Positions 1-62,980 of a DNA stretch of 64,000 nucleotides are shown one piece after another; the first letter of the stretch is position 1; each line of letters opens with the position of its first letter. The stretch comes from Eubacteriales bacterium. GTDB taxonomy: Bacteria; Bacillota; Clostridia; Oscillospirales; SIG627. The notes below the pieces were generated by a model that worked only from the letters and a program-made list of their open reading frames with translations, was not told where the DNA came from and did not search any database. The DNA lies in assembly GCA_045590615.1 (NCBI GenBank), contig JAZNRH010000099.1, positions 306 through 64,305 on the forward strand. The letters are read 5' to 3'. The translations under genes were made by a program, and so were the position numbers.

Positions 1-104
1 ATTCACTGCGATTTTTGATAGAGGATTTTTGGAAGTAATAAGTAATAGTGAATAGTTAAGAAGTTCGGTGTCTGCTTCGCAGACAAATTTATAAAATTTC
101 GCAA

Positions 105-1195: not shown

Positions 1196-1248
1196 CAAGG
1201 GGAAAGAAAAGGGTGATTAAGACGCATAGCGTCAAAATCGCCCTTTTC
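1196..1248 (-). terminator. Compound hairpin terminator after the 1913-aa gene
   Basis: On - strand: GAAAAGGGCGA-UUUU-GACGC-UAU-GCGUC-UUAA-UCACCCUUUUC followed by UUUCCCC; one C-A mismatch. Confidence 0.5.
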
Positions 1249-1282
1249 GGAAATTAGTTCATTGTGAATAAAGCCTTAGGTC

Positions 1283-4200
1283 TTATTCTTCGGGAGACAT
1301 AATTACGTATGCACCCTCGTAGTTAGTAAATACCAACCAACCTGCATCTACTACTGCAGTCTCTTCTTTACGAAGCTTGCCTATTCTCTCATTATAGCTT
1401 CTGAGCTCTAATTCCATACCGTCATATTCCTGACTGATAAGAACGTGAAGCTCTGCTTCTGCGAAAGGAAGCTCGTTAACCGACTCGATGAAGAATTCAG
1501 CAACGAGAGCCTCGCCTGCGAACTCCTTAAGAGTTTCATAGCTTGTATCGTGTCTGCTCTCACCGTCAAATGATACGAGAAGGTCATAATAGTGAACAAG
1601 ACTGTCAGTTTCAATGTTCGAAGCTGTAACTACGAACTTGTAGTTGTTAGCCTTGAATACAATTGTTGAATCAGGTGATGTCAACTTGAGGTTATCAAGT
1701 GCGAGTGTTGCAATCCAGGTATTAACTGAAAGATCAACCTCGTAATCAGCCTTAACTTCTGTGAAGTCAGAAGCAAGGTGGATTTTTTCAACCTCATTTT
1801 CAAGTGTTGTAAATGGCTCATCATTGTAGCCAACCTCAACCTCACAATAGTTGGAAGCAAGGCAGGCGTCTGTAGCCTTAACTCTTATTCTGTACTCACC
1901 GGGCTTAACTCTGATGCTTGTTGAGCCTGCCGGAATTGTAATCCACTCAGCAGGAGTTTCTGCTTCACCATGGAAGCTGTCCTCGCCCTCAAACTTCTGC
2001 ATAAACTCGTATACGAGATACTGGCTGAGACCTGCGATTTCACCATAGCCTGTTGCGCTTGGCGCATCCTTTGCTCTGAGCTGAGGTGTTGCAGGGTCTG
2101 TCTTTACTAAGTAGCTATCGGGTGTAAAGGTGAGGTTACAAAGTGTTGCAAGGAATGGATTAGCACCACCAAGATTCTTTACTTCGAGGATATCTTCGGG
2201 ACCGTCAATAGCCCAAGGATTGATTGCAAAGCCTACAATGTATCCGTCTGTTGGCCAGCCTTCGATATCTGTATTGGGATTGATTGTATACGTTGTACTG
2301 CTATTGGTCGAAACCTTATCGCTGTTTTTCCATTCATACTTCTGAACTGAACCGTCTGCTACAGCTACATAGAAGTCTACCTTTGCTCTTGCAAGAAGTG
2401 TTGTAGAACCACCCATTCTGTCTCTTGATGAGAAGCTGAAGGTGATTAATTCACTTGTAGGAAGGATTTCATTGTCCTCGTATGCATACTTGTAAGTATA
2501 TCCTTCTGTGTACTTTGAGTGACCACCGTTTACAATACTTACAATATTCTCTCTGTGAGCCTGCTCGTCACCTGTACCGAGTGCATTGTAGAATGGCTCT
2601 TGTACGCTCTGGTCTAAGAAACCACCCGTCTGACCGAGAACGTGTACTCCTGCCCAGCTACCTGTGTTTGCAGTAAGGCCTGTCCAGGTACCCTGAATCC
2701 AATTGTAAGTTGAATTATCCTTTACGTAGTAGCCACTTGGATCTCTGTTACCAAGAACCTTGTCTTCGTTTGTTCCCTTAACGAGAATCAAAACGGGTTC
2801 TGAATCGGCATACTCAGACGTATTGCTCGACTTAACCTGAACGGAGTACAGTGCCTTATCAAAGACTCTGCTTGCAGCATCAGCTGTCCATGTCTCAGCA
2901 GTTCCTGCACCGAAAATGTTAATCTTCTTGATAACGTAGGTTTCACCAACCTTGAATCCTTCAATACCACGCTCGTCGTTTGCTTCATCAAGATAGAATG
3001 CAAGATACGTTGGCTGTGCCATCTTAGGTGTGTTTACTGAGTAAGCCATCAAGGTGAAGTTAGCCTTAAGATCACCTGTAGTTGCAACGTCATCTGAAAC
3101 TACACCGTAGGGATAAACCTTGATACCTACAAGATATCCATTTGTGTCAATAAAGTCAGCTGCTGTAACTGTGTGTGTAGCTGTGCTTACGTCAACCAAA
3201 ACCTCACGCTCTTCAATTGCGCCAGCCTCTGTAACAACTACTGCAACAACCTTAGTTTTAAGTGTAGTTGCATTGATTGTGCCTGTGCTGAGTCCGGTCT
3301 TAAGCTGAAGTGACTTAAGGATTGAAAGAGGAATGATGTTCTTGTCTGCAAAATTGAAGCTGAATGCTACGTCTGTAATATCTGCTATCGCATCTGTAGT
3401 AGCAGCCTTGTAGTTTGAAGAATGCTCAATTCCATAATTTGATGTCCAACCACTTGTTACAAGATTAGAGTTATCTCTGATTGAGAATTCAGCTGTTGCA
3501 CCCTTAACGTATACTACCTTGGAGTTTGAAGCTGTCTCACCATTGTTGATTCTTACTTCGTAAAGACCACAATCAACAAGATCAAAGGTTGTTGCGCCTT
3601 CGGTAATCTGTGTATAATCGCCGGCAAATCCGTTAGCATACTTGCGATACTCATAATTTGTATTATTATCAAGATTTACGAGATTAGTTCCGTCTACCTG
3701 TACGTTCTTGAGAGCTGTAGGAATTACAACTGTCTCGAAGGTGTTGGAAACTGCCCAATCGGTATAAACTGCGCCACCTGCACGAAGCACGTATACGCCT
3801 GCGTTTTCGTCCGAAATTCTGAAGCTGCTGCCAGCTACCTTGATCCAAGCATTGTCTTCTGCGCTCTCGGGCTTGTACTCATAAACGTAAAGAGGAGAAT
3901 AATTCTCGATTGTAATTGTAAAGCCGGATGCTTCTGTCTTAACAGATACTACGGGCTTAACTGCATCAACCTTTGTTACAGTAATATCAGCAGTCGTTAC
4001 AGTCTTGAATATGTCGCCACTCGCTCTTACCGTGTAGCTTGTAGCGTCGGTAACAATAAAGCTTCCGTCTGTAATCTCGCTCCAGCTTTCACCGTCTGTG
4101 CTGTATTCATACGTAGCAAGAGCATTATTTTGATTGCTATAATTTGTGATATTAATCTGGTATTCTGTTGGGCTTACAATAACCTGCTCCAACGTGGGAA

Positions 4201-7024
4201 CGGGTGTTGTGAGCTTGGTTACAACAATCGAAGCACGAGCTACGTTTGAATATGCAAGACCATCTGCATATACGTTAAGGCTTACCGAGTTGTTGTTGCC
4301 AAAATCATCTGCAGTAACCTTGATTGTACCTGCGAGTGACTTGTCGTAGGTGTACTTTGTTCCACCGAAATCATACTCGTATGCATAGCTTGTATCAAAG
4401 TTCTCGATTGTAACAACGATTGCATTCTTTTCGTATGCAGTAATTGCAAGTGTAGGCTGTACTGCAGGACTTGTCGCAGCTACGATTGTACTCTCAGCTG
4501 TGCCTGTAAGGAGCTTTTCACTTGAAACCTGAACAGTGTAAGTACCGGGCTCTGCAACGGTAATCACACCTGTTGTGCCCTCATATACTGTCCATTCACC
4601 TTCACCAAGCTTGTACTTGTAGGTGTATTCACTGTTATAATCCTTGATAGTGATATCGTAGATAGCCTGTGCAGTAGGAGCTGCGTTAGGAGCTATTTCA
4701 AGCTCGGGAGCTTCTGCAGGAAGCTTAATCTTATAGTTTACAGGGTTTACTGAAAGTATATATCTGATGTTTGCAACTGTTTTTACACTTACAAAGTTAT
4801 CAACAGTATTCTCACAGTTGGGGTAGATTTCAAAGCCTACCATATAGCCTTCTACATCCTTGAATATCTCGGTAAAGTCAAATGCAAAGGCAAACTCTGT
4901 GCTATATTTTCCGTTAATATCAATAGTTGAAGTAGCTTCCTTTGTAGTAATATTACCACTATTATCAGCGATATATGCTACAAACTTAACCGTTTGCTTC
5001 TTCATCTCTACGTATCCGTTATCCTGCTTTACCTTAACTGTGAAGGAAAGAGCATCCTTTACGTCGATGATTTCTACAGGAGCAAAAGCGTACTTTGCTA
5101 CGATAGCATTCTGCTTATCAACGAGCGCCTGAATAGCTGCAGCCTTTGCAGTTTCGTCTGCTGCATTATTTATGTTACTAAGTGTTGCGGCAGGAATCTG
5201 CTCACCACTTGTACAAATCATTCCGTATGGTGCATTGGAACCATAAGCATAATGCATATAATAGCCACCCGTATAGGTTTCTGTCTTAAAGGTTTTTGTT
5301 TTTATTTCTGCGTATACAGCGTCACTTCCATTATTGTCACTAGCAATCTTACCGATTGCAGTTCTTTCAGCGCTGTCGCCATATACAAGAATAGGTGCTG
5401 TAGGAGCCGAGAAAGCGTTCTTATCCTTGTTAGTTTCACGAACAAGGTAGAGACCACCAAGCGCTGTAGAAGAAGTTATATTCTTATACGTGCCTGTTGT
5501 GAGTCCTGTGCCTTCTGCATTAAGAACAAGCTCTGCTACCTGATAGTACTTATTGTCAAAGTCAACACCGTTAAGTTCAAAGCCACCGGTAATACCTGTA
5601 GGTGCTGCAAGAGCATTATTGCTGTAGCTTAAAGTTACGATAGTATACTGCTTTGTAGAAGTATCACGAACGTAAAGCTTGCTTGCGTCTGCATCAAACT
5701 TAGTATCTGCTGTGAACAATACAGGGTATGCTGTAAGCTTGCCTGTTGCTTCGTTATATGGAGCAGCCTCGTATGTGTGACCTTCCTCTAAGCCTGCGAT
5801 TGTATTAGCAAGTGTGAGGTAAAGCTCGGGCTGTGTCCACTGCGTATAAGGCGTACCGTTGTCGTTATCAACGTCGGGGATTGGTTGTACAGAAACGGGA
5901 CATACTGCCGAAACACCCGTACCATTTTCTGCAGTAACAATAACGTTAGCATTACCACCACCAACAACCGTTACAAGACCTGTCTGGTCAACGGTTACAA
6001 CAGTTTCATCGTCAGATGACCAAACGATTCTGCTGTCTGTGGGAGTTTCGTTTTCGTTTTCAGCCTTAATTGTTGCTACAAGCTGATAAGGAGCACTGTC
6101 AACACCCAAACCAAGCTCTGCAGGTGTAATTGTGATTGTGTGAACCTTAACGGGCTCAGAATATATACCCGAAAGGTCAAATCCAAGTCCACCGTCTAAC
6201 GTAAGGGTTGAAGCTACTCTGGTATTATTAGTCGCAAGCTCAACTGCTTCACCCCAAGGCATTACACCAATACCTACAAGATATCCGTCGTCGTTCTTCA
6301 TTCCTTCGGGAATGGTGATGTTGAGCTTACCTGTATTATGGCTGACCGTTGCAGTATAAACTGTATTTTCGGTATCGCCTACACCCTTGGTGTAGAACTT
6401 AACTGTAACGTTCTTTGCGTCGCTGCCATATACTGCGCTGTTGTCAAGAGTGATACCAAGGCTTTCTACTGTGTTTGCAGGGACAATCTGATCTGCTGCA
6501 AAGCCGTATTTTACCTCAGCGAAAGGAACATAAGCGTCACCTCTGCCTGAGAAACCAAAGCTAAGTGTTGTACCGTTGCTTGACAATGCTGCCGCGCCTG
6601 TTGTCAGCTGCCACTGGTTTCCGTCATCTGAACTTTTGTTTCTGTTCCATTTACCTAATTCAAAGGTATCTACCTGGTTAGAAACTACACTGTCAGTGCC
6701 AATATTAATCTTACCGTTATTAGTATTCTTAACAAATACGTAAACAAAGTTCTCTGAATTTTCAACCTCGGTAATCTTATAGATACCGGAAGTCTTTGAA
6801 AACATATCTGTTTGACCGTCTACAGACTCTGCTGTGCCTGTAAGTGCGCCTGCAATTATATCATATTGCTGTGCTGTATAGGTTTTTGTAGGGTCAAGGA
6901 CAAGCTTACCGTCATCCTGAATACCCAAAGCAACAGCAGCAAACGACGAAACTGCAAGTACTGCACAAAGCACGAGTGCCATAATCGCTACTGAAATAAA
7001 GCGATTTGCAATTCTTGTTTTCAT
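1283..7024 (-). CDS. Giant secreted repetitive surface protein (1913 aa); Big_2-like Ig domain plus many beta-sandwich-like repeats; no SLH, LPXTG or other recognisable anchor
   Basis: N-terminal signal peptide (MKTRIANRFISVAIMALVLCAVLAVSSFAA). Ig-like segment ITITPAELGL...VIVTAENGTGVSAVCPVSV (nt 5891-6139). Five tandem ~80-aa repeats with a Y-x-Y-E/K-Y...W core. Four copies of a GY(L/M/I)VG-ending module. RBS ggagg upstream. Confidence 0.8.
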   Translation of the reverse strand: MKTRIANRFISVAIMALVLCAVLAVSSFAAVALGIQDDGKLVLDPTKTYTAQQYDIIAGALTGTAESVDGQTDMFSKTSGIYKITEVENSENFVYVFVKNTNNGKINIGTDSVVSNQVDTFELGKWNRNKSSDDGNQWQLTTGAAALSSNGTTLSFGFSGRGDAYVPFAEVKYGFAADQIVPANTVESLGITLDNSAVYGSDAKNVTVKFYTKGVGDTENTVYTATVSHNTGKLNITIPEGMKNDDGYLVGIGVMPWGEAVELATNNTRVASTLTLDGGLGFDLSGIYSEPVKVHTITITPAELGLGVDSAPYQLVATIKAENENETPTDSRIVWSSDDETVVTVDQTGLVTVVGGGNANVIVTAENGTGVSAVCPVSVQPIPDVDNDNGTPYTQWTQPELYLTLANTIAGLEEGHTYEAAPYNEATGKLTAYPVLFTADTKFDADASKLYVRDTSTKQYTIVTLSYSNNALAAPTGITGGFELNGVDFDNKYYQVAELVLNAEGTGLTTGTYKNITSSTALGGLYLVRETNKDKNAFSAPTAPILVYGDSAERTAIGKIASDNNGSDAVYAEIKTKTFKTETYTGGYYMHYAYGSNAPYGMICTSGEQIPAATLSNINNAADETAKAAAIQALVDKQNAIVAKYAFAPVEIIDVKDALSFTVKVKQDNGYVEMKKQTVKFVAYIADNSGNITTKEATSTIDINGKYSTEFAFAFDFTEIFKDVEGYMVGFEIYPNCENTVDNFVSVKTVANIRYILSVNPVNYKIKLPAEAPELEIAPNAAPTAQAIYDITIKDYNSEYTYKYKLGEGEWTVYEGTTGVITVAEPGTYTVQVSSEKLLTGTAESTIVAATSPAVQPTLAITAYEKNAIVVTIENFDTSYAYEYDFGGTKYTYDKSLAGTIKVTADDFGNNNSVSLNVYADGLAYSNVARASIVVTKLTTPVPTLEQVIVSPTEYQINITNYSNQNNALATYEYSTDGESWSEITDGSFIVTDATSYTVRASGDIFKTVTTADITVTKVDAVKPVVSVKTEASGFTITIENYSPLYVYEYKPESAEDNAWIKVAGSSFRISDENAGVYVLRAGGAVYTDWAVSNTFETVVIPTALKNVQVDGTNLVNLDNNTNYEYRKYANGFAGDYTQITEGATTFDLVDCGLYEVRINNGETASNSKVVYVKGATAEFSIRDNSNLVTSGWTSNYGIEHSSNYKAATTDAIADITDVAFSFNFADKNIIPLSILKSLQLKTGLSTGTINATTLKTKVVAVVVTEAGAIEEREVLVDVSTATHTVTAADFIDTNGYLVGIKVYPYGVVSDDVATTGDLKANFTLMAYSVNTPKMAQPTYLAFYLDEANDERGIEGFKVGETYVIKKINIFGAGTAETWTADAASRVFDKALYSVQVKSSNTSEYADSEPVLILVKGTNEDKVLGNRDPSGYYVKDNSTYNWIQGTWTGLTANTGSWAGVHVLGQTGGFLDQSVQEPFYNALGTGDEQAHRENIVSIVNGGHSKYTEGYTYKYAYEDNEILPTSELITFSFSSRDRMGGSTTLLARAKVDFYVAVADGSVQKYEWKNSDKVSTNSSTTYTINPNTDIEGWPTDGYIVGFAINPWAIDGPEDILEVKNLGGANPFLATLCNLTFTPDSYLVKTDPATPQLRAKDAPSATGYGEIAGLSQYLVYEFMQKFEGEDSFHGEAETPAEWITIPAGSTSIRVKPGEYRIRVKATDACLASNYCEVEVGYNDEPFTTLENEVEKIHLASDFTEVKADYEVDLSVNTWIATLALDNLKLTSPDSTIVFKANNYKFVVTASNIETDSLVHYYDLLVSFDGESRHDTSYETLKEFAGEALVAEFFIESVNELPFAEAELHVLISQEYDGMELELRSYNERIGKLRKEETAVVDAGWLVFTNYEGAYVIMSPEE
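3500..4699 (-). repeat. Intragenic array of five tandem ~80-aa domain repeats (residues ~776-1175 of the giant protein)
   Basis: Recurring cores: SEYTYKYKLGEGEWTVY, TSYAYEYDFGGTKYTY, LATYEYSTDGESWSEI, PLYVYEYKPESAEDNAWIKV, NTNYEYRKYANGFAGDYTQI. Each is followed by G-x-Y-x-V-(R/Q). Confidence 0.7.
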
Positions 7025-7126: not shown

Positions 7127-10100
7127 TTAAGGATTTGTATATTCTACGCCAGCCTTGGTGTAGGTATCAATCTCTTCGTTGTACTCGAACCAATCAATCA
7201 AGATGTAAGCAAGCTTTGTCTTGTTGTTGTCCTCGTAGGTACCAACCTTGGCAACGAATGAAGTTGTTCCTTCTGCGTTTTCGTTGTCAATGTCGTACTG
7301 CTTGATAGTATTGTATACGTCAACGAGTTCTTCGAAAGTAATAACTCTTGTTTCTGCTGTTTCGGCATCTGTTATTGCTATAATCTTAACAGTATCGTCA
7401 ATCTTCAAGCCTTCTGCATGCCAGTAGGTGAAGATTATGCTCATATCATCAAGAATTTCGGTAACTGTATCATTCTTGAGTGACTGTACTGCAGGATTGT
7501 TTTCTACGCTTACATAATCCTTTTGGGTTTCATCCCAAGCGTAAATACCACCCATGAAAATATCTGTTGCCTCATTGAAGCCCATTGCCTTGTTAACGCC
7601 TGTAACGTCCTCGTAGGTGTAAAGCTTCTTGAAGTTATATGAAGGACATACCTCTTCTCCGTGAGCTACCTGCTCCATATCGGTTACTGCGAAGAGATGC
7701 TCACGAGCATCCATCTTGTAATCGGAATCGGTAGTAGTCATACCGGAGAAGTCATCGTCAATTACTACAGATGAAAGCTTGTAAAGGGTTGTTTCCTTAT
7801 CATAGGTGAGGTAAATCTCACTATCGAGCTTAACTCTTGCAAAATCCGTGGGGATTTCGTCGCCCTTGTAATAGTCGATATATTCGTGCTCACCTGTTGC
7901 GTTCTTTGTATAAGGATAGTAAATAACTGTATTTTCGTCAAATACTATCTTAGCCTGCTTGGTTACGTACTCAACGGGGTCTGTTCCGGGAACAGCCTCT
8001 TCGATTGTAACAAGTCCCGTCTTTTCATCGATTACCATATACAAGTCCTTGCCTTGTTCTGCTACAAGAACTCTTTCAATCTCTACGCCCTCATCATTGG
8101 TAATGGTTGAAGCTGTGGTTGAAAGTGTATAGTAGCCCTTGGAGTCGATTGTATAGGTTACGAGCTTATTGGGATACATAACTCTTGCAATGCCGTCACC
8201 GTCGATATCCTTGATGTAAGGTCTGTATTCAGAACCATCGTCGGATACCGTCTCGCCTGAGAAGCCGTTGATAGCATTTGTAGCATTGAGGTTTACGAGC
8301 TGAGTTCTGCCGTTGATTACGAGATATGCAGGATAGAATACTTCGAATTCCTTTGTTGCTTCGTTAATCTGTGGCTTTGTAGCCTCGGTAACGTAGAGAA
8401 GGATTGCCTTGTTAAGTCCACCGTCACCCTGCTGTACGCGCTCTACAGAAATAGGCTCAGCGTAAAGGATTGCTCCGTCAACTACCCAATACTTAGCGTA
8501 ATTGTAGTTACCTGTATCAACGTTAACACCAAGAAGAGGATTCATACTCTCGTTGAAGGATACGAAAAAGTTAGTGTTACCATCGTTGCCGTCGCCATAG
8601 AAATATCTGTGTGTGTTCCAGAGTTTATAATATGGATAACCCGGACCACCGACACTCTTACCTGTATTAAGAGTCATTGTCTGTGAACGAGAGCCCCTGC
8701 TCTTAACAGACGTTGCATAACCGATTTCGATAGTTGGCTCAAGCATAACTGTGAAGGTGTCACCAAATGCGTAACCTACGACAATATCGCCTTCCTCAAT
8801 TTCAGAAAGCATTGATACGTTATCCTTAGGGAACACCATATCCATTGCAGGAATATCTGCAACACCCTCTACCTGTACGTAGTCCATTCTGTTCTTGTAC
8901 AAATACTCGAACTCAATTGACTTAGCTGTTATCTTCTTAACCTTGTAAGCGTCTGCATATTCCAAAATGAGATAGTCATAATAACCGTCTCCGTCCTTAT
9001 CAATGCCTGCGCTGTATCTCTGGAAACCTGAAACAGCCGTAAGGTTAGTCATATCAAGAATGGTAAACTGAATACATTCATTCCATCTGCTGCCTGATGT
9101 ATTATTATAAGAGAAAGCTCTTACAAGAGAATCTGATACAGAACCGTTAAGATTATAGCAACCGTAGGTTGCAACTGCAACGTCATCGTAATACGTAAGT
9201 CTCTTAAGGTTGAGCATTTCATCATTTTTATACTTCACACCGTCAAGTGTAATTTCATACAAAGCGTAATAGCCCTGCTGAAGGTTTCCTGCATCAAATG
9301 CCTTTCTCTTACTGTCAGGATAATTCTTTGCATCAACCAGAGCACCCGAGATACCCTCTTTTACGTTACCCTTAAGAGTAGCTGTGATATACTCGTCGCT
9401 TGTACCTATAGTAATAAGGTTGATATTACGTGTAAGAAGCTCGTCAGACTTACCAACGTATTCTTCAAGACCGTATTCTGTAAGAGAAAGTGTCTTGTAT
9501 TCAACGTTGTCGCCGTCAACAATTCTTACTACAATAGCATCAGGGTCATCTGTCTTTTCCTGGTCGATAATTGCATCAGCTCTTGTAAGCTCTGCTACGG
9601 GCTTGGCAGGGAACTCTACGAAGCCGTAGTTCTCGGTAGCAACTACCTGAGCAGGATACTCTTTGTACTTCCATACAGAGTCCTTAAGGGTGTTGATACC
9701 TGTGCTTGATGATGAAACTGAACCAAGAATACCCAAAAGTGTATCTGTGGGCTTAGCTGCGTTCTCGGTATACATAGGCTTGTCAAACGCATTGTAAACA
9801 AGCTGTACCACCTGAGCTCTTGTAAGAGGAGTTTCGCCGGCAACATCCTCAAGCTCTTCGTTGAGCTCAAGGTCAATAAGAGCCTTAGTTCTTACGTCTG
9901 TTGGCCACATTGCAGGTGAGAAATCCTTATAGCCGAGCATTACACAGACCATCTTAAGAGCTTCGTCGTATGTAATGTTTCCGTCAGGACGGAAGGTACC
10001 GTCCTCGTATCCACCAACGATACCGTTTTCTGCACACCAAGAAATATATCCTGCTGCCCAGTTGTTCTTTTTAACGTCAGGGAATGTTGTCGCGCCCTCA

Positions 10101-55808: not shown

Positions 55809-56885
55809 ATGAGAAAATTAACTAACAAGGTCGTTGCAGGAACCATCGAAATCGGTGGGAACGCTCCCATTTCTATTCAATCGATGATAACTGCAAACCC
55901 ACATGACAAAAATGCATGTATAAAGGATATATTAAGACTCGCCGAGGCAGGCTGTGATATTATTCGCTTTACTCTGCCCGACGTCGAGTCTGCCGAGAAT
56001 ATCCCCTTTTATAAAAAAGAGCTCGGCAAGCACAAGGTTGCTCTGGTAGCTGATATTCATTTTGATTATAGAGTTGCGCTGAGAGCGTGTGAGCTCGGTA
56101 TAGATAAAATAAGAATTAATCCGGGTAACATCGGAGACGAGAGCAAGGTCAAGGCTGTAGCAGACGCCTGCCGTGAAAGAAGCATCCCCATCAGAATAGG
56201 TGTAAACAGTGGCTCTCTTGAAAAGAAGCTACTCGAAAAATACGGCTCACCGACCTCAGATGCGTTAGTTGAGTCGGCTCTCGGTGAAATTGAGGCGCTT
56301 GAACGCTTTGGCTTCTCTGACGTCGTAGTGTCGGTAAAGTCGTCCGACGTTGCCACAATGATAGACGCATACAAAAAGCTCTCGGCTAAAACGAGCTGTC
56401 CTCTGCACCTTGGTGTAACCGAGGCAGGAACACTCAAGAAAAGCCTTATTAAATCCTCTGTCGGTATCGGAACGCTTCTCAGTCAGGGAATTGGCGACAC
56501 AATTCGCGTATCTATTACCGACGACGTTATAGAGGAGGTCATTGCAGGAAGAGAAATTCTCTCCTCGCTCGGACTTTTTAATAAGGGCTCGTTTGACCTG
56601 ACCTCCTGTCCCACCTGTGGTAGAACGAAAATCAATCTCGTTGAAATTGCTAAAAAAGTGGAGAGCGCTCTCGAAACGCTCCCACCAATAGAAAACAAAA
56701 AAATCAAGGTTGCCGTTATGGGCTGTGTAGTAAACGGACCCGGTGAAGCAAGAGAGGCAGATATCGGAATTGCAGGTGGCATAGGCGAAGCGCTTCTCTT
56801 CAAGAAGGGTGAGCCGATTTGCAAAATACCCGAGGATAAAATTGTTGAGGTATTGATAGAAGAAATTGAAAAAATGAGGAATTGA
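55809..56885 (+). CDS. ispG: 4-hydroxy-3-methylbut-2-en-1-yl diphosphate synthase
   Basis: IQSMITAN, RINPGNIG, SCPTCGR, MGCVVNGPGEA. Confidence 0.95.
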   Translation: MRKLTNKVVAGTIEIGGNAPISIQSMITANPHDKNACIKDILRLAEAGCDIIRFTLPDVESAENIPFYKKELGKHKVALVADIHFDYRVALRACELGIDKIRINPGNIGDESKVKAVADACRERSIPIRIGVNSGSLEKKLLEKYGSPTSDALVESALGEIEALERFGFSDVVVSVKSSDVATMIDAYKKLSAKTSCPLHLGVTEAGTLKKSLIKSSVGIGTLLSQGIGDTIRVSITDDVIEEVIAGREILSSLGLFNKGSFDLTSCPTCGRTKINLVEIAKKVESALETLPPIENKKIKVAVMGCVVNGPGEAREADIGIAGGIGEALLFKKGEPICKIPEDKIVEVLIEEIEKMRN

Positions 56886-56887
56886 AA

Positions 56888-59800
56888 TTGGAATTTGAAA
56901 AAAACAGTATTTCCCTTGCCGAAAAGCTGACGAAGTATCAGCCCGAGGGAATAAAAAGGGCGTTGCTTGAAGCTACTTATCAATACAAGTGCGCAGTAAA
57001 TAAAGAAAACAGGTCTTTTATAATACATATAGCCTCAGACAAGCTTTTACAAAAGGCTCTGCTCTATGAAATAGAGTCAGAGCTTGTATCTGCTTATGCG
57101 CTCAGCGCCTGCTTTATACTCCCACACTATCCCGAAAAGCTCTTCAGTGAGAGCTATTACTCGGAGCTTATAACCGAGCTTAAGCGCAATACTGCCTTTG
57201 CAAACGGATTTTTTGACAACGGAAAAATGGAGCTCGAGGGAAACAAGCTTGTTTTCAAGCTCGACGGTGGACTTGGAAAGCTCCCTCACGATGCCGAGTG
57301 CTCAAGAATTCTTGCCGATATTATAAAAAGCGAATTCGACCTTGCACTCGAGGTTGTAATCGACGATTCAATCCCCTTTGATATGAGCTCCTACATCAAG
57401 GAATCGGAGCGCTCTATGCCAATGCCCAAGATCGTCGAGAAAGTTCAAGAGGAAGCAAAGGAACAGATTCACTCCCTTATGGAAGAAGAAAATGAAGTGG
57501 ACGAGAAGAGCGAAAACTCCGAGAAAGAGGACAGCTTCCGTTCAGGCTTTATTGAATTCGACCTCTCTAAAAGAGAGCTCGTATATGGCAAGGAGAGAAA
57601 AAAAGAAGCTAACTTCGTTGCAATAAAAAACGTATTCGGACTTGAACCGAAAAAGCTTATTGCAGTATGTGGTAAGGTTTTCTTTACGGACAGCCGAGAA
57701 ACAAGAGCAGGAGACAAAACCATTGCCACAGTACAGATTACCGACGAAAGCTCGTCGATATCGGTTAAATTCTTTTGCCCCGTAGAAAATTGGAACGATG
57801 CCAAAGGTGCGTTCAAAACGGGCACTGCTATCGAGGTAATCGGTCAGGTAGATTTTGATAAATATGAAAATGAAACGGTTATAAAGCCGGTTTCGGTATA
57901 TAAAATTTCAGAGAAAAAAAGAACGGACGATGCCGAGGAAAAGAGAGTTGAGCTTCATATTCACTCCACCCTATCGGCAATGGACGCAGTAGCTTCCCCC
58001 ACTCAGATAGTGGAAACTGCTCACGCATGGGGACACAAGGCTGTCGCAATCACCGACCACGGAAACGTGCAGGGCTTCCCCGATGCAATGATTGCCGCCG
58101 AAAAGCTTGGTATGAAGGTGCTCTACGGAATAGAAGCATATTTCGTAGACGATACTGCAAGAGCCGTTTACGGTGACTCCAACGCAAGCTTTGAGGATGA
58201 CACCTTTATAATTTTTGATATAGAAACAACGGGTCTTTCCCCACTGACCTGTGGCATTACCGAAATAGGTGCAGTAAAGTATCGTGGTGGAAAAATCGAG
58301 GACAGGTTTTCAACCTTCGTCAACCCACAAATACCAATTCCTCAGAATATCGTTGAATTGACGGGCATTACCGACGATATGGTAAAAGATGCCCCCGATA
58401 CACAAAGCGCTGTAAAGAGCTTTGTGGAATTTTGTGGCAATGACATTCTTGTTGCGCATAACGCTAACTTTGATATGGGCTTTATGAAAAAGGCTGCAGA
58501 GGACTATTCAATCCCCTTTACCAATCCGTATCTTGACACTCTTGCGTTGTCGAGACATATCAACACAGACCTGAAAAAGCACAAGCTTGACACCCTTCAG
58601 GAATATTACGGACTTGAGGCCTTCAATCACCACAGAGCGTGTGACGATGCCGAAATGCTTGCTAAAATTTTTGAATGTATGTGTCAGAAGCTCAAAAAAG
58701 AGGGCGTTGCAAATATTTCGGATATGATTTTATCAATGTCCGAAAAAACCGACCCAAAAAAGCTTCGTCCATATCATATGATTATTCTCGTAAAGAGTCA
58801 GGCAGGTATGTTCAATTTATACCGTCTTGTTTCGGAGTCCTATCTTACGTATTTTAACCGTCAGCCGAGAATTCCAAAGACTCTTCTCGAGAGATACCGT
58901 GACGGCTTGATTATAGGCTCGGCTTGTGAAGCAGGCGAGCTCTATCAGGCGATTTTATCGGGTAAAAATACGGGCGACCTTTTGAAGATTGCCTCGTTCT
59001 ACGATTATCTTGAAATTCAGCCTCTGTCCAACAACGCCTTTATGATAGAAAACGGCACTGTGCCAAACGAGGACAAGCTGATTGAAATCAATAAAGAAAT
59101 TATTTCTCTTGCAAGAAAGGCAAAGAAGCCTGTCGTTGCAACCTGTGATGCGCACTTCTTGAATAAGCAGGACGAGATTTACAGAAGAATTCTCGTTTCG
59201 GCAAAATTCACAGATGCAGACCGACCAAATCCCTTGTATTTCAGAACGACCAAGGAAATGCTCGCCGAGTTCTCATATCTTGACGAAGCTACTGCAAAAG
59301 AGGTTGTCATTACCAATCCCAACCTCATAGCCGATATGGTTGACGATGAAATACGTCCAATCCCCAAGGGTACATTCACCCCGAATCTCGAGGGTGCAGA
59401 AGAGGACCTGCAGAATATGTGCTGGAAAAAGGCAAAAAGCATATACGGAGACCCTCTTCCCGAAATCGTTTATAACCGTCTTGACAAGGAGCTTACGTCG
59501 ATTATCAAGAACGGCTATGCCGTGCTTTATATCATTGCTCAAAAGCTTGTACATTACAGTGAAAGTCAAGGCTATCTCGTAGGCTCAAGAGGCTCGGTAG
59601 GCTCTTCCTTCGTTGCATCGATGGCAAGTATATCCGAGGTAAATCCCCTTCCACCACACTATTACTGCCCCGAGTGTAAATACAGCGAATTTATCACTAA
59701 CGGCTCGGTGGGCTCGGGCTTTGACTTACCCGACAAAAAGTGCCCTAAGTGTAACGCCGACCTCAAGGGTGACGGACACGATATCCCCTTTGAAACCTTC

Positions 59801-61249
59801 CTCGGCTTCTACGGAGACAAATCACCCGATATCGACCTCAACTTCTCGGGAGAGGTACAGGGACGGGTACACAAGTACACCGAAGAGCTCTTCGGCAGTG
59901 AAAACGTTTTCCGTGCAGGAACGTTGGGTACGCTTGCCGAAAAGACGGCGTACGGCTTTGTTCTCAAATATCTTGAAAGTAAAAACCTTACTATGAACAA
60001 AGCAGAAATGAATCGCCTTGCAAACGGCTGTGTAGGTGTAAAGCGCACTACGGGTCAGCACCCGGGTGGTATCATAGTTGTGCCACGTGAGAACAGCGTT
60101 TACGAATTCACTCCCGTTCAGCACCCTGCCGACGACCCTAACTCGGATATCGTTACAACTCACTTTGCATTCTCCTATCTGCACGATACCATTCTCAAGC
60201 TCGACGAGCTTGGACACGATATTCCAACCAAATATAAAATGATAGAGCGCTTCTCAGGCACCAATATAATGGACGTTCCTATGAACGTGCCCGAGGTGTA
60301 CGAGCTTTTCCGTTCTACCAAGCCTCTCGGGGTAACCCCTGAGGATATCGGCTGTCCTCTCGGTACACTCGGCTTGCCCGAGCTGTCAACCTCCTTCGTT
60401 CAGCAGGTTCTCGTTGAAGCTAAGCCAAAGAACTTTGCCGACTTGTTGCAGGTATCGGGACTTACTCACGGTACGGACGTATGGCTCGGAAATGCTCAGG
60501 ATTTGATTAACGAGGGCATCTGTGACATTTCAAAGGTTATAGGTACCCGTGACGGTATCATGCTCGACCTTATCAACTACGGACTCGAAAACAAGCTTTC
60601 GTTTGATATAATGGAAAAGGTTCGTAAGGGTAAGGGGCTTTCACCGGAGCACGAGGCGGCAATGAGAGAAAAGAACGTACCCGATTGGTACATAGACTCG
60701 TGTAAAAAAATCAAATATATGTTCCCTAAGGCTCACGCAGCGGCATACGTAATGAGTGCTATCAGAATCGGCTGGTATAAAATCTTTATGCCCGTTGCCT
60801 TCTATGCAGGTTTCTTCACAGCAGCCCCCGGTGGCTTTGATGCAGGAATAGTTATGGGTGGCAGAGCAAACGTCGTTCGCACAATTGAGGACATCAAGCA
60901 AAGAGGACACGACGCAAGCCAGAAGGAGCAGTCTCTCATACCTACTCTTCAGCTTGCAAACGAATGTATGGCACGTGGAGTAGAATTTCTGCCAATCAAC
61001 CTCTATAAATCACATTCGCACGACTTCTTGCCAGAGGGTGACAAAATCCGTCTCCCCTTCTCTACGCTTGGTGGAGTAGGCGACGCTGCTGCTATAAGCA
61101 TCTACAAGGCTATGAATTCGGGCGAGGCGATTTTGTCCGTAGAGGACCTTAGAACACGCTCAGGAATTTCCAAGGCAGTTATAGATACACTTCGCGAATT
61201 CGGTGTGTTGGATGAGCTTCCCGAAACCAATCAATTAACGCTGTTTTAA
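56888..61249 (+). CDS. polC: DNA polymerase III PolC-type (Gram-positive replicase with internal exonuclease)
   Basis: PHP motif VELHIHS, exo motifs FDIETTGLS / AHNANFDMGF / HHRACDDA, zinc-finger CPECKY...CPKC, pol core. No ATG available. TTG 56888 sits 7 nt after GAGGA (TTG 56882 only 1 nt after). Confidence 0.93.
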   Translation: MEFEKNSISLAEKLTKYQPEGIKRALLEATYQYKCAVNKENRSFIIHIASDKLLQKALLYEIESELVSAYALSACFILPHYPEKLFSESYYSELITELKRNTAFANGFFDNGKMELEGNKLVFKLDGGLGKLPHDAECSRILADIIKSEFDLALEVVIDDSIPFDMSSYIKESERSMPMPKIVEKVQEEAKEQIHSLMEEENEVDEKSENSEKEDSFRSGFIEFDLSKRELVYGKERKKEANFVAIKNVFGLEPKKLIAVCGKVFFTDSRETRAGDKTIATVQITDESSSISVKFFCPVENWNDAKGAFKTGTAIEVIGQVDFDKYENETVIKPVSVYKISEKKRTDDAEEKRVELHIHSTLSAMDAVASPTQIVETAHAWGHKAVAITDHGNVQGFPDAMIAAEKLGMKVLYGIEAYFVDDTARAVYGDSNASFEDDTFIIFDIETTGLSPLTCGITEIGAVKYRGGKIEDRFSTFVNPQIPIPQNIVELTGITDDMVKDAPDTQSAVKSFVEFCGNDILVAHNANFDMGFMKKAAEDYSIPFTNPYLDTLALSRHINTDLKKHKLDTLQEYYGLEAFNHHRACDDAEMLAKIFECMCQKLKKEGVANISDMILSMSEKTDPKKLRPYHMIILVKSQAGMFNLYRLVSESYLTYFNRQPRIPKTLLERYRDGLIIGSACEAGELYQAILSGKNTGDLLKIASFYDYLEIQPLSNNAFMIENGTVPNEDKLIEINKEIISLARKAKKPVVATCDAHFLNKQDEIYRRILVSAKFTDADRPNPLYFRTTKEMLAEFSYLDEATAKEVVITNPNLIADMVDDEIRPIPKGTFTPNLEGAEEDLQNMCWKKAKSIYGDPLPEIVYNRLDKELTSIIKNGYAVLYIIAQKLVHYSESQGYLVGSRGSVGSSFVASMASISEVNPLPPHYYCPECKYSEFITNGSVGSGFDLPDKKCPKCNADLKGDGHDIPFETFLGFYGDKSPDIDLNFSGEVQGRVHKYTEELFGSENVFRAGTLGTLAEKTAYGFVLKYLESKNLTMNKAEMNRLANGCVGVKRTTGQHPGGIIVVPRENSVYEFTPVQHPADDPNSDIVTTHFAFSYLHDTILKLDELGHDIPTKYKMIERFSGTNIMDVPMNVPEVYELFRSTKPLGVTPEDIGCPLGTLGLPELSTSFVQQVLVEAKPKNFADLLQVSGLTHGTDVWLGNAQDLINEGICDISKVIGTRDGIMLDLINYGLENKLSFDIMEKVRKGKGLSPEHEAAMREKNVPDWYIDSCKKIKYMFPKAHAAAYVMSAIRIGWYKIFMPVAFYAGFFTAAPGGFDAGIVMGGRANVVRTIEDIKQRGHDASQKEQSLIPTLQLANECMARGVEFLPINLYKSHSHDFLPEGDKIRLPFSTLGGVGDAAAISIYKAMNSGEAILSVEDLRTRSGISKAVIDTLREFGVLDELPETNQLTLF

Positions 61250-61251
61250 GA

Positions 61252-61775
61252 GGCTATAAAAAAAGGTGACACCGAAAAAACGATGAATACTTTTTGAAAG
61301 TCATATAGTAATAAACAAACAAAACCTTTCAAAAGTTATGCTTTTTATATGTAGTAAAATTTGAAGATTCAAATTTTACAAAAATAATATTCGTTTTTTC
61401 TTTGCACGAACCTCGCTACTCCCGTACATAAGTACGGCGACGAGCGTCGGTTCGCACAATCTCCCTCTTTTTTTAGGCGCCTCTCAAAAAACACTTGGCT
61501 GTAAAAAAAAGTGACACCGAAAAAACGATGAGAAGCTTTTGAAAGCCATATAGTAATAAACAAACAAAACCTTTCAAGAGTTATGCTTTTATAGGTAGTA
61601 AAATTTGATTAGCCAAATTTTACAAAAATAGTATTCGTTTTTTCTTTGCACGAACCTCGCTACTGCCGTACATAAGTACGGCGACGAGCGTCGGTTCGCA
61701 CAATCTCCCTCTTTTTTTAGGCGCCTCTCAAAAAATGGCTATAAAAAAAGTGACACCGAAAAACAATGAGAAAAT
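61252..61775 (+). repeat. Non-coding structured tandem repeat, unit ~245 bp, two full copies plus a partial third
   Basis: Unit starts (GGCT-R-TAAAAAAA..GTGACACCGAAAAA) at 61252, 61497 and 61737. Copies 1 and 2 align end to end with about 20 differences by eye. Each has three hairpins (copy 1: 61289-61336, 61354-61379, 61407-61454). Confidence 0.9.
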
Positions 61776-61816
61776 AGAAGTTACATAATAGTAGTAATTA
61801 ACACATAGGAGTTATT

Positions 61817-62980
61817 ATGACAAGGCTGATATTGAAAAAATACAAGGACAATCTTGATACGCAACAGACCAAGGCGTCAATAGGTAAGCTGTCGGGCGCA
61901 GTTGGAATATGCGCTAATATGCTTTTGGCTGTGGCAAAGCTTTTTGCCGGTACTCTTTCGGGCTCGGTTTCAATTACTGCAGATGCCTTGAATAATTTTA
62001 CCGATGCGGCAAGCTCGCTCATTACTCTCGTCGGCTTCAAGCTCAGCGAACAGCCTGCCGATGACGAGCATCCTTACGGACACGCAAGATTTGAATACCT
62101 TTCAGCTTTAGCCGTTTCTGTGCTGATTATATTTATCGGCTTTGAATTGGCAAAAACTTCAATTGGTAAAATTATCAACCCGACTGCTACTACGCTTTCA
62201 CTTGTATCCGGAGCAATTCTCGTAATATCAATTATGGTCAAGCTCTGGCTGTCTTATTTTAATAAGGTACTTGGACGGGCAATTGATTCTGCTACCCTCG
62301 TAGCTTCATCGGCTGATAGCAGAAACGACGTTATTGCTACCCTTGCAGTCCTTGTCGCTTCTCTTGTAGAGCATTTTACAAGCTTTAAGATAGACGGATT
62401 TATGGGACTTGCAGTTGCTATATTTATACTGTATAGTGGAATTACTCTTGCAAAGGACACTATTTCGCCAATTCTCGGAGAAAACGCAACGCCCGAGCTG
62501 AAGGAAGAAATTGTCGATTACGTAAGCTCTTGCCCAAAGGTGCTTGGTTATCACGACCTTATGGTACACGATTACGGAATGGGCAGACGCTTTGCGAGTC
62601 TACACGTTGAAATGGACAAGAACGAGGACCCTATTTTATGCCATGAGCTAATTGACGATATGGAGCGTGAGTGTAAAAAAAGCCACGGAGTAGAGCTTGT
62701 TATTCACTACGATCCCGTGACTATAGACGACCCCATATTCGATTTGCTTAGAGAACATTCGCTTGAGGCTCTCAAAAGCATTGACGATAGAATAACCCTT
62801 CACGACTTCAGGGTGGTAATAGGTGAAGGTCATACCAACGTGGTTTTTGATGCAGTAATTCCTACCGACCTCAAGTGCAATAAGGACGATATAAAGCTTT
62901 GCGTCGAAAAAACGCTCGAAGATAAGAACGATAAAAAATTCTACGCAGTTATAACCTATGACCTGATAGCATTTAATTAA
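61817..62980 (+). CDS. Cation diffusion facilitator family metal exporter
   Basis: Six-TM N-terminal domain with ADALNNFTD and HPYGHARFEY motifs, plus a cytoplasmic C-terminal domain. RBS taggag. Confidence 0.85.
   Translation: MTRLILKKYKDNLDTQQTKASIGKLSGAVGICANMLLAVAKLFAGTLSGSVSITADALNNFTDAASSLITLVGFKLSEQPADDEHPYGHARFEYLSALAVSVLIIFIGFELAKTSIGKIINPTATTLSLVSGAILVISIMVKLWLSYFNKVLGRAIDSATLVASSADSRNDVIATLAVLVASLVEHFTSFKIDGFMGLAVAIFILYSGITLAKDTISPILGENATPELKEEIVDYVSSCPKVLGYHDLMVHDYGMGRRFASLHVEMDKNEDPILCHELIDDMERECKKSHGVELVIHYDPVTIDDPIFDLLREHSLEALKSIDDRITLHDFRVVIGEGHTNVVFDAVIPTDLKCNKDDIKLCVEKTLEDKNDKKFYAVITYDLIAFN

Follow-up and report, generated by a model that had tools for sequence, protein, structure and literature searches.

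The repeat array between polC and a cation-efflux gene

In a 64,000-nucleotide stretch of DNA from Eubacteriales bacterium (contig JAZNRH010000099.1; the whole stretch is called the window below), the spacer between polC and a gene for a CDF cation-efflux protein contains a tandem array of structured repeat units, which is the subject of this analysis. Tandem Repeats Finder (TRF) reported the array as one call at 61252-61772, with a period of 244, 2.2 copies, 91% matches, and a score of 873. In a preliminary description, the start of the unit had been noted at 61252, 61497, and 61737. These positions were borne out by TRF, BLASTN, and a 20-mer count, and Pfam confirmed both polC and the CDF gene as the flanking genes. 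When unit 1 was used as a BLASTN query against the window, unit 2 was matched with 93.3% identity over 240 nt and a third match of 28-31 nt was obtained at 61737-61772; no further copies were found in the whole 64-kb window beyond the polC-CDF array. The opening 20-mer of the unit occurred three times (61260, 61505, and 61744), versus 0.02 occurrences expected by chance. The stop codon of polC (TAA) occupies 61247-61249, and the array begins 2 nt further on. The features of the locus are as follows.

56882-61249, plus strand: polC (DNA polymerase III PolC-type), from the list of open reading frames (ORFs); Pfam DNA_pol3_alpha, RNase_T, PHP, finger, and HHH_6.
61252-61496, plus strand: repeat unit 1, 245 nt; TRF, BLASTN, hidden Markov model (HMM) of the family (E=6e-65), fold z-scores of -6.2/-6.8.
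61497-61736, plus strand: repeat unit 2, 240 nt, 93.3% identity to unit 1; TRF, BLASTN, and family HMM.
61737-61793, plus strand: terminal truncated unit, consisting of the X motif and the start of hairpin H1; family HMM positions 2-63, E=0.003.
61806-62980, plus strand: CDF cation-efflux gene with the ribosome-binding site AGGAG, a neighbour outside the element; Pfam Cation_efflux/ZT_dimer, protein at 61817-62980.

The third copy had been recognized previously, and its presence was confirmed. Its extent had been given as about 35 nt, whereas the family HMM aligned about 57 nt (61737-61793). This truncated unit is the extra 3'-terminal X motif that is typical of arrays of the family described below.

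Anatomy and predicted fold of the unit

Each unit is composed of, in order, the 5' motif X, hairpins H1 and H2, the 3' strand of helix P3, hairpin H3, the 3' strands of helices P1/P2, a T-run, and a C-rich tail (ATCTCCCTC or ATCTCTCC). In unit 1 of the window, these elements were assigned as follows.

61252-61283, plus strand: X motif, GGCTATAAAAAAAGGTGACACCGAAAAAACGA, giving the 5' strands of helices P1 and P3.
61290-61336 (arms 61290-61300 and 61326-61336), plus strand: hairpin H1, the variable inner module; its sequence varies by subfamily and its pairing is kept.
61354-61379 (arms 61354-61363 and 61370-61379), plus strand: hairpin H2, GTAAAATTTG / CAAATTTTAC, covarying across units.
61391-61400, plus strand: 3' strand of P3, TCGTTTTTTC, with its partner at 61272-61283.
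61404-61457, plus strand: GC-rich nested hairpin H3, with the outer stem GCACGAACC/GGTTCGCAC and the inner hairpin CCGTAC-ATAA-GTACGG; folding and covariation.
61465-61482, plus strand: 3' strand of the closing helix P1, CTCTTTTTTTA, and the palindrome AGGCGCCT; folding and covariation.

The hairpin arms of H1 to H3, the T-run, and the palindrome were all found where the preliminary description had placed them in copy 1. Its three hairpins stood, and long-range helices joining the 5' motif to the 3' part of the unit had been overlooked. X, the most conserved part of the family, reads GGCTnTAAAAAAAGGTGACACCGAAAAA in the window type, GGCTAAAAAAGCGCAGACCGAAAAAGCG in gut type a, and GGCTAAAATCGTCCGGACCGAAAAAGCG in gut type b. 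It pairs with the 3' end of its own unit (P1/P2) and with the segment past the inner hairpins (P3). In the window, the long-range helices are formed by AAAAAAAGG with CTCTTTTTTT and by CCGAAAAAACGA with TCGTTTTTTC. Through pairing of the 5' A-run and CCGAAAAAACGA with CTCTTTTTTT and TCGTTTTTTC, the unit is closed over its entire length, and a GCC near its 3' end pairs with the GGC at its start. In every subfamily, the unit termini are imperfect inverted repeats of 16-24 nt that form the closing helix. In H3, the outer arms 61404-61412 and 61449-61457 enclose an inner stem at 61422-61437, and the tip CGTAC-N4-GTACG is nearly invariant across the family. The T-run (61465-61475) starts 8 nt past H3 and is followed by AGGCGCCT at 61475-61482. 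The predicted shape is a Y-like three-way junction, in which H3 would form one arm and P3, capped by H2 and the variable H1, the other. The window unit folded with -62.5 kcal/mol on the plus strand (z=-6.2 versus shuffles) and -78.7 kcal/mol on the minus strand (z=-6.8 versus shuffles).

Three other interpretations of the fold were rejected. A register switch, with the 3' part of a unit alternating between the upstream and the downstream X, is contradicted by mixed arrays, in which the 3' part pairs only with the X type of its own upstream motif. The features expected of a single-strand origin of a rolling-circle plasmid (a TAGCGA string in H3) and of domain 5 of a group II intron are not conserved across subfamilies.

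The only ORFs inside the units were of 64 aa and 34 aa, both on the minus strand. Coding on this strand, from a Shine-Dalgarno sequence and a GTG or ATG after the A-run, was rejected on account of frame shifts between subfamilies and early stops in some units; the candidate ORF is interrupted by a stop codon in the units of L029 and L050_2 (L-numbers denote the loci, i.e., contigs, compared in this analysis). ARAGORN detected no tRNA or tmRNA gene in 60900-62000. On the minus strand of the window units there is a single weak 5-bp terminator-like site, in X. Promoter-like hexamers were present in H1 of each unit on the minus strand (TTGAAA-16-TACTAT, 61332-61305 and 61577-61550) and at H2 of unit 1 on the plus strand (TTGAAG-16-AATAAT, 61361-61388), in both cases with a frequency no higher than in shuffled sequence.

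Covariation of the helices

Base pairing was evaluated in an alignment of 21 units and 47 pairs, with column shuffles (500) and slid partners as controls. Standard pairs were formed by 89.7% of the alignment cells, compared with 79.1 +/- 0.8% after shuffling (none of the 500 shuffles reached the observed value) and 40-52% with slid partners. The covariation score was 0.314, versus 0.152 for shuffled columns and at most 0.107 for slid partners, and double changes were seen in 22 of the 47 pairs, figures that overstate the number of independent events because of the kinship among units. Six helices covary.

P3 (helix 4) was paired in 94.8% of cells, with double changes in four pairs, and occurs as ACGA/TCGT, GCGAAAAC/GTTTTCGC, GCGGATA/TATCCGC, GTGAAAA/TTTTCAC, and ATAAAAA/TTTTTAT. 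The closing helices P1/P2 are found in one version as AAAAAAG..GCAGA with TCTGC..CTTTTTT and in another as AAAATCGT..GGA with TCC..ACGATTTT; the P1 version changes as one block, together with the type of X. H2 is represented by AAAATTTG/CAAATTTT, GAAAGGC/GCCTTTC, GGAATCC/GGATTCC, and GAAATCC/GGATTTC. In H3, the mid stem is either CTCG/CGAG or CCCC/GGGG, and the outer stem exists in several versions. Block-wise switching of whole helices between subfamilies is hard to explain without a pairing constraint. The earlier observation, made on the two window copies, that stems are kept while loops vary thus applies across the family.

Distribution of the family

The motif AAAAARGTGACACCGAAAAA, a 20-mer, was used to scan one genome per species. 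Full-length homologues were found on two contigs of the Eubacteriales bacterium metagenome-assembled genome (MAG) JAZSLY01, with 69-73% identity and partial matches of 79-81%. In JAZSLY01, two units and a further 5' motif lie directly behind an IMP-dehydrogenase-family gene, one unit and a motif behind nrdD, and one unit behind trxB. A diverged unit was located behind trxB in a Ruminococcaceae MAG species (L024-L027; NCBI label 'Ruminococcaceae bacterium'), which encodes the TrxB homologue P0128. This unit has its own 5' motif on both sides, and a second fragment occurs elsewhere on the contig. Most 20-mer matches in the genome scan were discarded as chance matches.

A metagenome scan with the apical H3 motif yielded 29 loci, 18 of which carried units (about 38 in total), mostly on human-gut contigs; a single 14-kb locus could contain as many as three separate arrays. 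The remaining 11 loci were chance matches in high-GC coding DNA. A metagenome scan with the 3' motif CGCRCAATCTCCCTCTTTTT gave no match. Overall, about 45 units of 220-330 nt were collected from more than 15 loci; examples of arrays are those at L035 6029-6462, L050 778-1232, and L039 9971-10203. Arrays consist of one to three units, usually with one more X or a truncated unit at the end, and there are many copies per genome, beside unrelated housekeeping genes. The family is confined to some uncultured Oscillospirales/Eubacteriales. One alternative of the preliminary description, a novel intergenic repeat family, is supported by these homologous units, which occupy numerous unrelated loci of other genomes and of metagenomes.

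Isolated copies of AAAAARGTGACACCGAAAAA with the rest of the unit absent were seen at L008 1719-1741 (plus strand) and L012 4202-4225 (minus strand), which are intergenic sites in Lachnospiraceae and Eubacteriales MAGs. They stand just upstream of promoter-like sequence and could be chance occurrences or solo X motifs. On L034, a 1.4-kb high-GC contig, there is around the match at 38-58 (minus strand) a long hairpin, CGATTTTCGCCGAGATGGG...CCCATCTCGGCGAAAAG, with an apical GCCGTACGCAAGTACGGC as in H3; this hairpin may be a distant high-GC relative of the family.

Gene context and orientation

The genes adjoining arrays included polC, an IMP-dehydrogenase-family gene, nrdD, trxB, era-recO, ybbR-pfk, gdpP-dnaB, an ABC-transporter pair, the gene for a dockerin protein, and spoIVA. 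At least nine loci have arrays between co-oriented genes, and all of these arrays run in the same direction as the genes, with none reversed. Three other arrays sit between convergent genes. The beginning of the array is no more than a few bases away from the stop codon of the upstream co-oriented gene, and in several cases this stop codon is the TAA or TGA inside GGCTAAAA, GGCTGAAA, GGCTTGTAA, or GGGCTTTAA. In L019 and L040, a sense-strand terminator is present downstream of the unit region; therefore, the units at these loci lie within the transcription unit of the upstream gene. The inner hairpin of the L019_C and L024 units itself scores as a terminator. ORF, Pfam, and NCBIfam scans of about 250 kb of flanking sequence revealed no gene for a transposase, integrase, reverse transcriptase, HUH transposase, or RAYT-like protein. 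A protein common to the array neighbours was also considered; two 294-aa ORFs beside arrays proved unrelated to each other and belong to no family, and this candidate was rejected.

Several small modules were observed near arrays. One module recurs after arrays at L015 ~1225-1290 (minus strand), L019 ~4955-5010 and ~3640-3700 (both minus strand), and L024 11200-11262 (plus strand). It consists of a hairpin (GAAAATYGCAARCRATTTTC or GATTTGCAAAGCAAATC), followed by CCTTAATT and three to four heptad-like repeats (TTCATCA, TCTGCAT, CTCTTCA), and on the antisense strand relative to the genes, its hairpin has a terminator-like score. Solo X modules (GGCTAAAA..GACCGAAAAAGC and then TYTCGRGGA) occur just upstream of full units at L031 ~3350-3385 (minus strand), L040 ~6840-6872 (plus strand), and L030 ~1313-1345 (minus strand); they look like units from which the entire interior was deleted. 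Ordinary terminator hairpins with an X-like 5' arm, GAGCTGTTAAAAA..TTTTTAACAGCTC or GGGCTGTAAAA..TTTTACAGCCC, were noted at L040 1013-1043, L050 ~8100-8135, L028 10915-10945, and L019 4929-4949, a resemblance that points to a possible origin of X and of the unit's 3' end as the two terminator arms, or to mimicry of these arms. In a related MAG, two strings like tRNA T-arms (GGTCGATTCCCG and GGGTTCGATTCCCGA), which may be tRNA-derived fragments, occur downstream of trxB (L023 5600-5720).

The gene context bears directly on the other alternative of the preliminary description, a duplicated small RNA (sRNA) gene or a cis-regulator of the exporter. Metal exporters are often controlled by riboswitches such as NiCo and yybP-ykoY. 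The array immediately precedes the start codon of the CDF gene, no terminator intervenes, and the plus-strand promoter-like site at 61361-61388 in unit 1 would also suit a duplicated leader (riboswitch or attenuator) of this gene. However, units are found behind IMP-dehydrogenase-family, nrdD, trxB, era, ybbR, gdpP, ABC-transporter, and dockerin genes. Elsewhere a unit follows at least 12 unrelated genes, and in the three convergent cases, a downstream gene that could be regulated is missing. Outside the source genome, the closest CDF homologue (73% identity) is preceded by asd, and its 200-nt upstream region resembles the unit only insignificantly; CDF homologues at 61-73% identity have other upstream regions without a unit, and no unit is near the CDF genes on L062 and L063. 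Exact-protein look-ups with the CDF protein of the window and with P0001, its match at 100% identity, returned nothing. Because CDF homologues in relatives are without the unit, there is no link to the exporter. In Rfam 15 covariance-model scans, the region 61000-62000 gave no match even at E<=10, the best hit having 21.6 bits against a gathering score of 60 and all hits E>2. It is therefore very improbable that the repeat is a leader of the CDF gene.

A duplication specific to this spacer, or an assembly artefact, with no wider family, would be in keeping with the single array in the 64-kb window and with the 1.2-kb contig of a 99%-identical CDF gene, whose break may fall at the repeat. Such a local origin is opposed by the full-length homologues found in other genomes and in metagenomes, in which the helices covary, and the 7% divergence between the copies argues against an artefact of collapse or expansion. 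We attach practically no probability to this explanation. The distribution of the family contradicts a duplication that is purely local, as it does the CDF leader.

Turnover between related strains

The ybbR flanks of L037 and L039 are 99.2% identical over 600 nt, whereas their units are just 80% identical: the inner module was replaced, the outer module is nearly unchanged, and there is one unit in L037 versus at least two in L039. L031 and L039 have the pfk side in common (97%) and different upstream genes; therefore, the array sits at a rearrangement point. All four combinations of inner-module kind and outer-module type occur.

In the era-recO spacer, a unit is present in L050, and an unrelated 102-nt spacer is found in L058-L060, where the Era protein is 99% identical. 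The filled and empty spacers are wholly different, and the boundaries of an insertion are unreadable in this comparison. The nrdD-trxB spacers of relatives of JAZSLY01 are plain, 52-91 nt long, and contain unrelated hairpins, so the unit of JAZSLY01 is an addition. Short direct repeats were not seen at the array junctions; what follows most arrays is a copy of the 5' motif, 20-57 nt long.

Strand asymmetry

In 21 of 24 units, the antisense strand (relative to the genes) had the lower minimum free energy, and the RNAalifold consensus energy was -23.3 kcal/mol for the antisense strand versus -11.1 kcal/mol for the sense strand. The consensus helices contain 61 G.U cells on the antisense strand and 9 on the sense strand, and in folds made without wobble pairs, the single mismatches on the gene-sense strand were of the A.C type in 30 cases and of the G.T type in 6, although these correspond to only 9 versus 4 distinct wobble sites (G.U-bearing columns, wobble-free folds). 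The wobble-free consensus fold retains invariant pairs only and is uninformative on the strand. In the window, two A.C mismatches of the H3 outer stem on the plus strand become G.U pairs on the minus strand. On the antisense strand, the H2 loops of gut units read GNNA (GCAA, GUAA, GCGA, GUCA, and GAUA). The composition-corrected z-scores differ only modestly (window unit, -6.8 antisense and -6.2 sense; L039, -5.6 antisense and -4.0 sense), and terminator placement, which implies sense-strand co-transcription with the upstream gene, also limits the conclusion. Taken together, these results lean toward the antisense strand as the strand of action. A U-G pair in H1 of unit 2 had been used to argue that the plus strand is the RNA; this holds for that pair, while the wobble pairs and fold energies as a whole lean to the minus strand. 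The antisense lean may stem from copying or movement of the element as a single strand and not from an RNA present at each site.

The asymmetry raises the question of whether the units are free-standing structured sRNA genes, antisense to their neighbours (in the window, on the minus strand), with every unit terminated by a U-run of its own beside the stop codon of the neighbour. Wobble pairs, fold energy, z-scores, the GNNA loops of gut units, and the strong covariation would all be explained in this way. On the other hand, no conserved promoter was evident upstream of the antisense units, only about 15 nt separate the units within arrays, and the hairpin of the post-array module, terminator-like on the antisense strand, would keep outside transcription from entering. 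An sRNA gene would not usually have mosaic modules, dozens of copies in one genome, and replacement between strains, and the narrow margin in distinct G.U-bearing columns (9 versus 4) also counts against this explanation. We regard sRNA genes as an unlikely explanation.

Substrates for single-stranded DNA recombination or transposition, comparable to attC, REPINs, or elements of the IS200/IS605 type, would likewise have structure conserved above sequence and an asymmetry of strands, with the fold recognized as DNA, and X would then be the recombination or target site that is duplicated with each added unit. Arrays of n units usually have n+1 X motifs, the orientation is fixed relative to genes and hence probably to replication, inner modules are replaced between strains like cassettes, and solo X modules exist. 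However, the approximately 250 kb of flanks scanned contains no integrase, HUH transposase, or RAYT-like gene, inspection of the junctions by eye gave no GTTRRRY-type core or conserved target tetranucleotide, and the units exceed the size of attC (57-141 bp). Moreover, if genes and replication run in the same direction, the favoured strand would be the template of the leading strand, and the rule for IS608 is the opposite of such a preference. A DNA substrate of this kind thus seems rather improbable.

A related possibility, to which only a small probability is given, is that the units, far from being passive, form a new class of single-stranded RNA or DNA elements, Y-shaped and ~230 nt long, with selection acting on the strand antisense to the genes. 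They would be either the intermediate of a non-autonomous mobile element or a multi-copy antisense RNA family with a role in the cell. If the mobile-intermediate version were true, the 3' segment would pair with an X-like target at gene ends, and each added unit would duplicate X, somewhat like a CRISPR repeat.

Interpretation of the array

[quoted passage not shown] This assignment is based on the hybridizing terminal inverted repeats, the absence of coding capacity, the many copies beside unrelated genes, the mosaic modules, the gain, loss, and replacement of units at the strain level, and the absence of a theme among the neighbours. The repeats would spread or recombine between gene ends as selfish elements of the MITE/BOX/BIME type, and tolerance of them would be limited to a single orientation and to the short interval that separates the stop codon from the terminator. 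The units would be carried on the transcript of the upstream gene as a folded 3' untranslated region or intercistronic adduct, which may slow 3' exonucleases or attenuate read-through. In the window, one resident unit would have been duplicated recently in tandem (7% divergence), and the place of the array between polC and the CDF gene would be an accident of insertion. The array probably acts as a folded adduct, a putative exonuclease barrier or partial attenuator.

Several points weigh against this interpretation. The wobble pairs favouring the antisense strand fit poorly with a purely mRNA-borne role, and no canonical intrinsic terminator was found on the plus strand inside the window units. 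Six covarying helices exceed the needs of a passive repeat, which suggests selection on a single-stranded form. The 64-kb window of the source holds just one array. Finally, examination of the junctions and flanking ORFs revealed no target-site duplication, clean empty site, or cognate transposase, so that mobility is inferred only from distribution and turnover.

Structured interspersed repeats affect operon expression, mRNA stability, and genome rearrangement, and have been well studied only in a few cultured pathogens. The present family is abundant in uncultured Oscillospirales, including a lineage prevalent in the human gut; the exact sequence of the PFK protein beside the L039 array is recorded on 78 contigs. 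The family has a well-defined fold supported by covariation, is missing from Rfam, and marks rearrangement points and assembly breaks in MAGs. A unit upstream of any gene can pass for a riboswitch or an sRNA, as happened in the preliminary description. The strand asymmetry and the extra terminal X are concrete, testable oddities.

Comparison with known families and systems

The preliminary description could not assign the unit to an RNA family, and the covariance models led to the same result. The whole window gave no match at the gathering thresholds of Rfam 15, which include NiCo/czcD, yybP-ykoY, the Mn riboswitch, and Clostridiales-1, and the only match in five related loci at E<=1 was Gut-1, outside the units. 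BLASTN searches of phage and plasmid collections and scans of viral contigs gave no match to the unit. A literature search for the sequence strings and the topic also gave none, nor did the first 200 supplementary files of a human-microbiome catalogue of structured RNAs. The Gut-1 RNA (RF01706) at L015 1270-1343 (minus strand; 55.7 bits, gathering score 50) directly follows the terminal X of an array on the same strand. Gut-1 is an orphan structured motif known only from human-gut metagenomes (PMC2864571). Unlike the unit, it is a separate 77-nt run of small hairpins split by ATGAAAT, and it is absent from the window and the other arrays searched.

The NiCo (czcD) and yybP-ykoY riboswitches are structured RNAs upstream of metal exporters of Clostridia, and the window array has the same context. 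Unlike them, the element is not linked to exporter genes elsewhere and matches no covariance model. Compared with integron attC sites (57-141 bp), the units are larger, tandem without ORFs, and beside housekeeping genes; no integrase domain was found, and no RYYYAAC/GTTRRRY core sites were seen at the junctions by eye. A CRISPR array would have unique spacers of similar length between short identical repeats; here the segments between X motifs are homologous (93% in the window) and pair with X.

REP sequences are palindromes of ~35 nt with a conserved GTAG and alternating orientation, and are linked to RAYT transposases. The present family resembles REP/BIME and REPINs of Proteobacteria in its mosaic clusters of structured subtypes at gene ends and inside operons, with the structure conserved. 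The units are, however, about seven times larger and all in one orientation within an array, no RAYT was seen, and the position corresponding to GTAG is GTAG, GCAG, or AAAG by subfamily. The roles proposed for REP/BIME are those of mRNA 3'-end stabilizers or attenuators (PMC3049150).

MITEs (ERIC, Correia elements, and bcr1 of Bacillus cereus) share with the family imperfect terminal inverted repeats, the lack of an ORF, a length of less than 350 bp, many dispersed copies, and presence or absence that differs between related genomes. The termini read GGGGAGGCTAAAAAAG versus the reverse complement GGGGAGAGATAAAAAAG, and in the window AGAGGCTATAAAAAAAG versus AGAGGCGCCTAAAAAAAG. No target-site duplication was seen at the array junctions, and no parent insertion sequence among the flanking ORFs scanned. 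In contrast to MITEs, the inverted-repeat sequence itself covaries between subfamilies, and tandem arrays are the rule.

BOX of Streptococcus pneumoniae is intergenic and modular, with variable tandem internal modules and termini that hybridize to give a folded RNA, and it forms 5' and 3' adducts of operons (PMC3049150). The grounds given above for the assignment of the present family are those that were also used for the pneumococcal repeats BOX, RUP, and SPRITE (PMC3049150). The present family likewise belongs among small, non-coding, high-copy repeats of Firmicutes that are modular, have hybridizing terminal inverted repeats, and lack a functional theme among their neighbours; no sequence relation to BOX was seen, although no search was aimed at one. 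The differences lie in the repetition of whole 220-330-nt units instead of the 45-nt boxB, the Y-shaped three-way junction with six covarying helices, the extra 5' motif at the end of most arrays, and an apparently strict orientation to genes, with arrays abutting the stop codon. The kind of element is known, while the family itself appears to be described here for the first time, as do the size of its units, the covarying Y-shaped fold, the strict orientation, and the extra X with which most arrays close.

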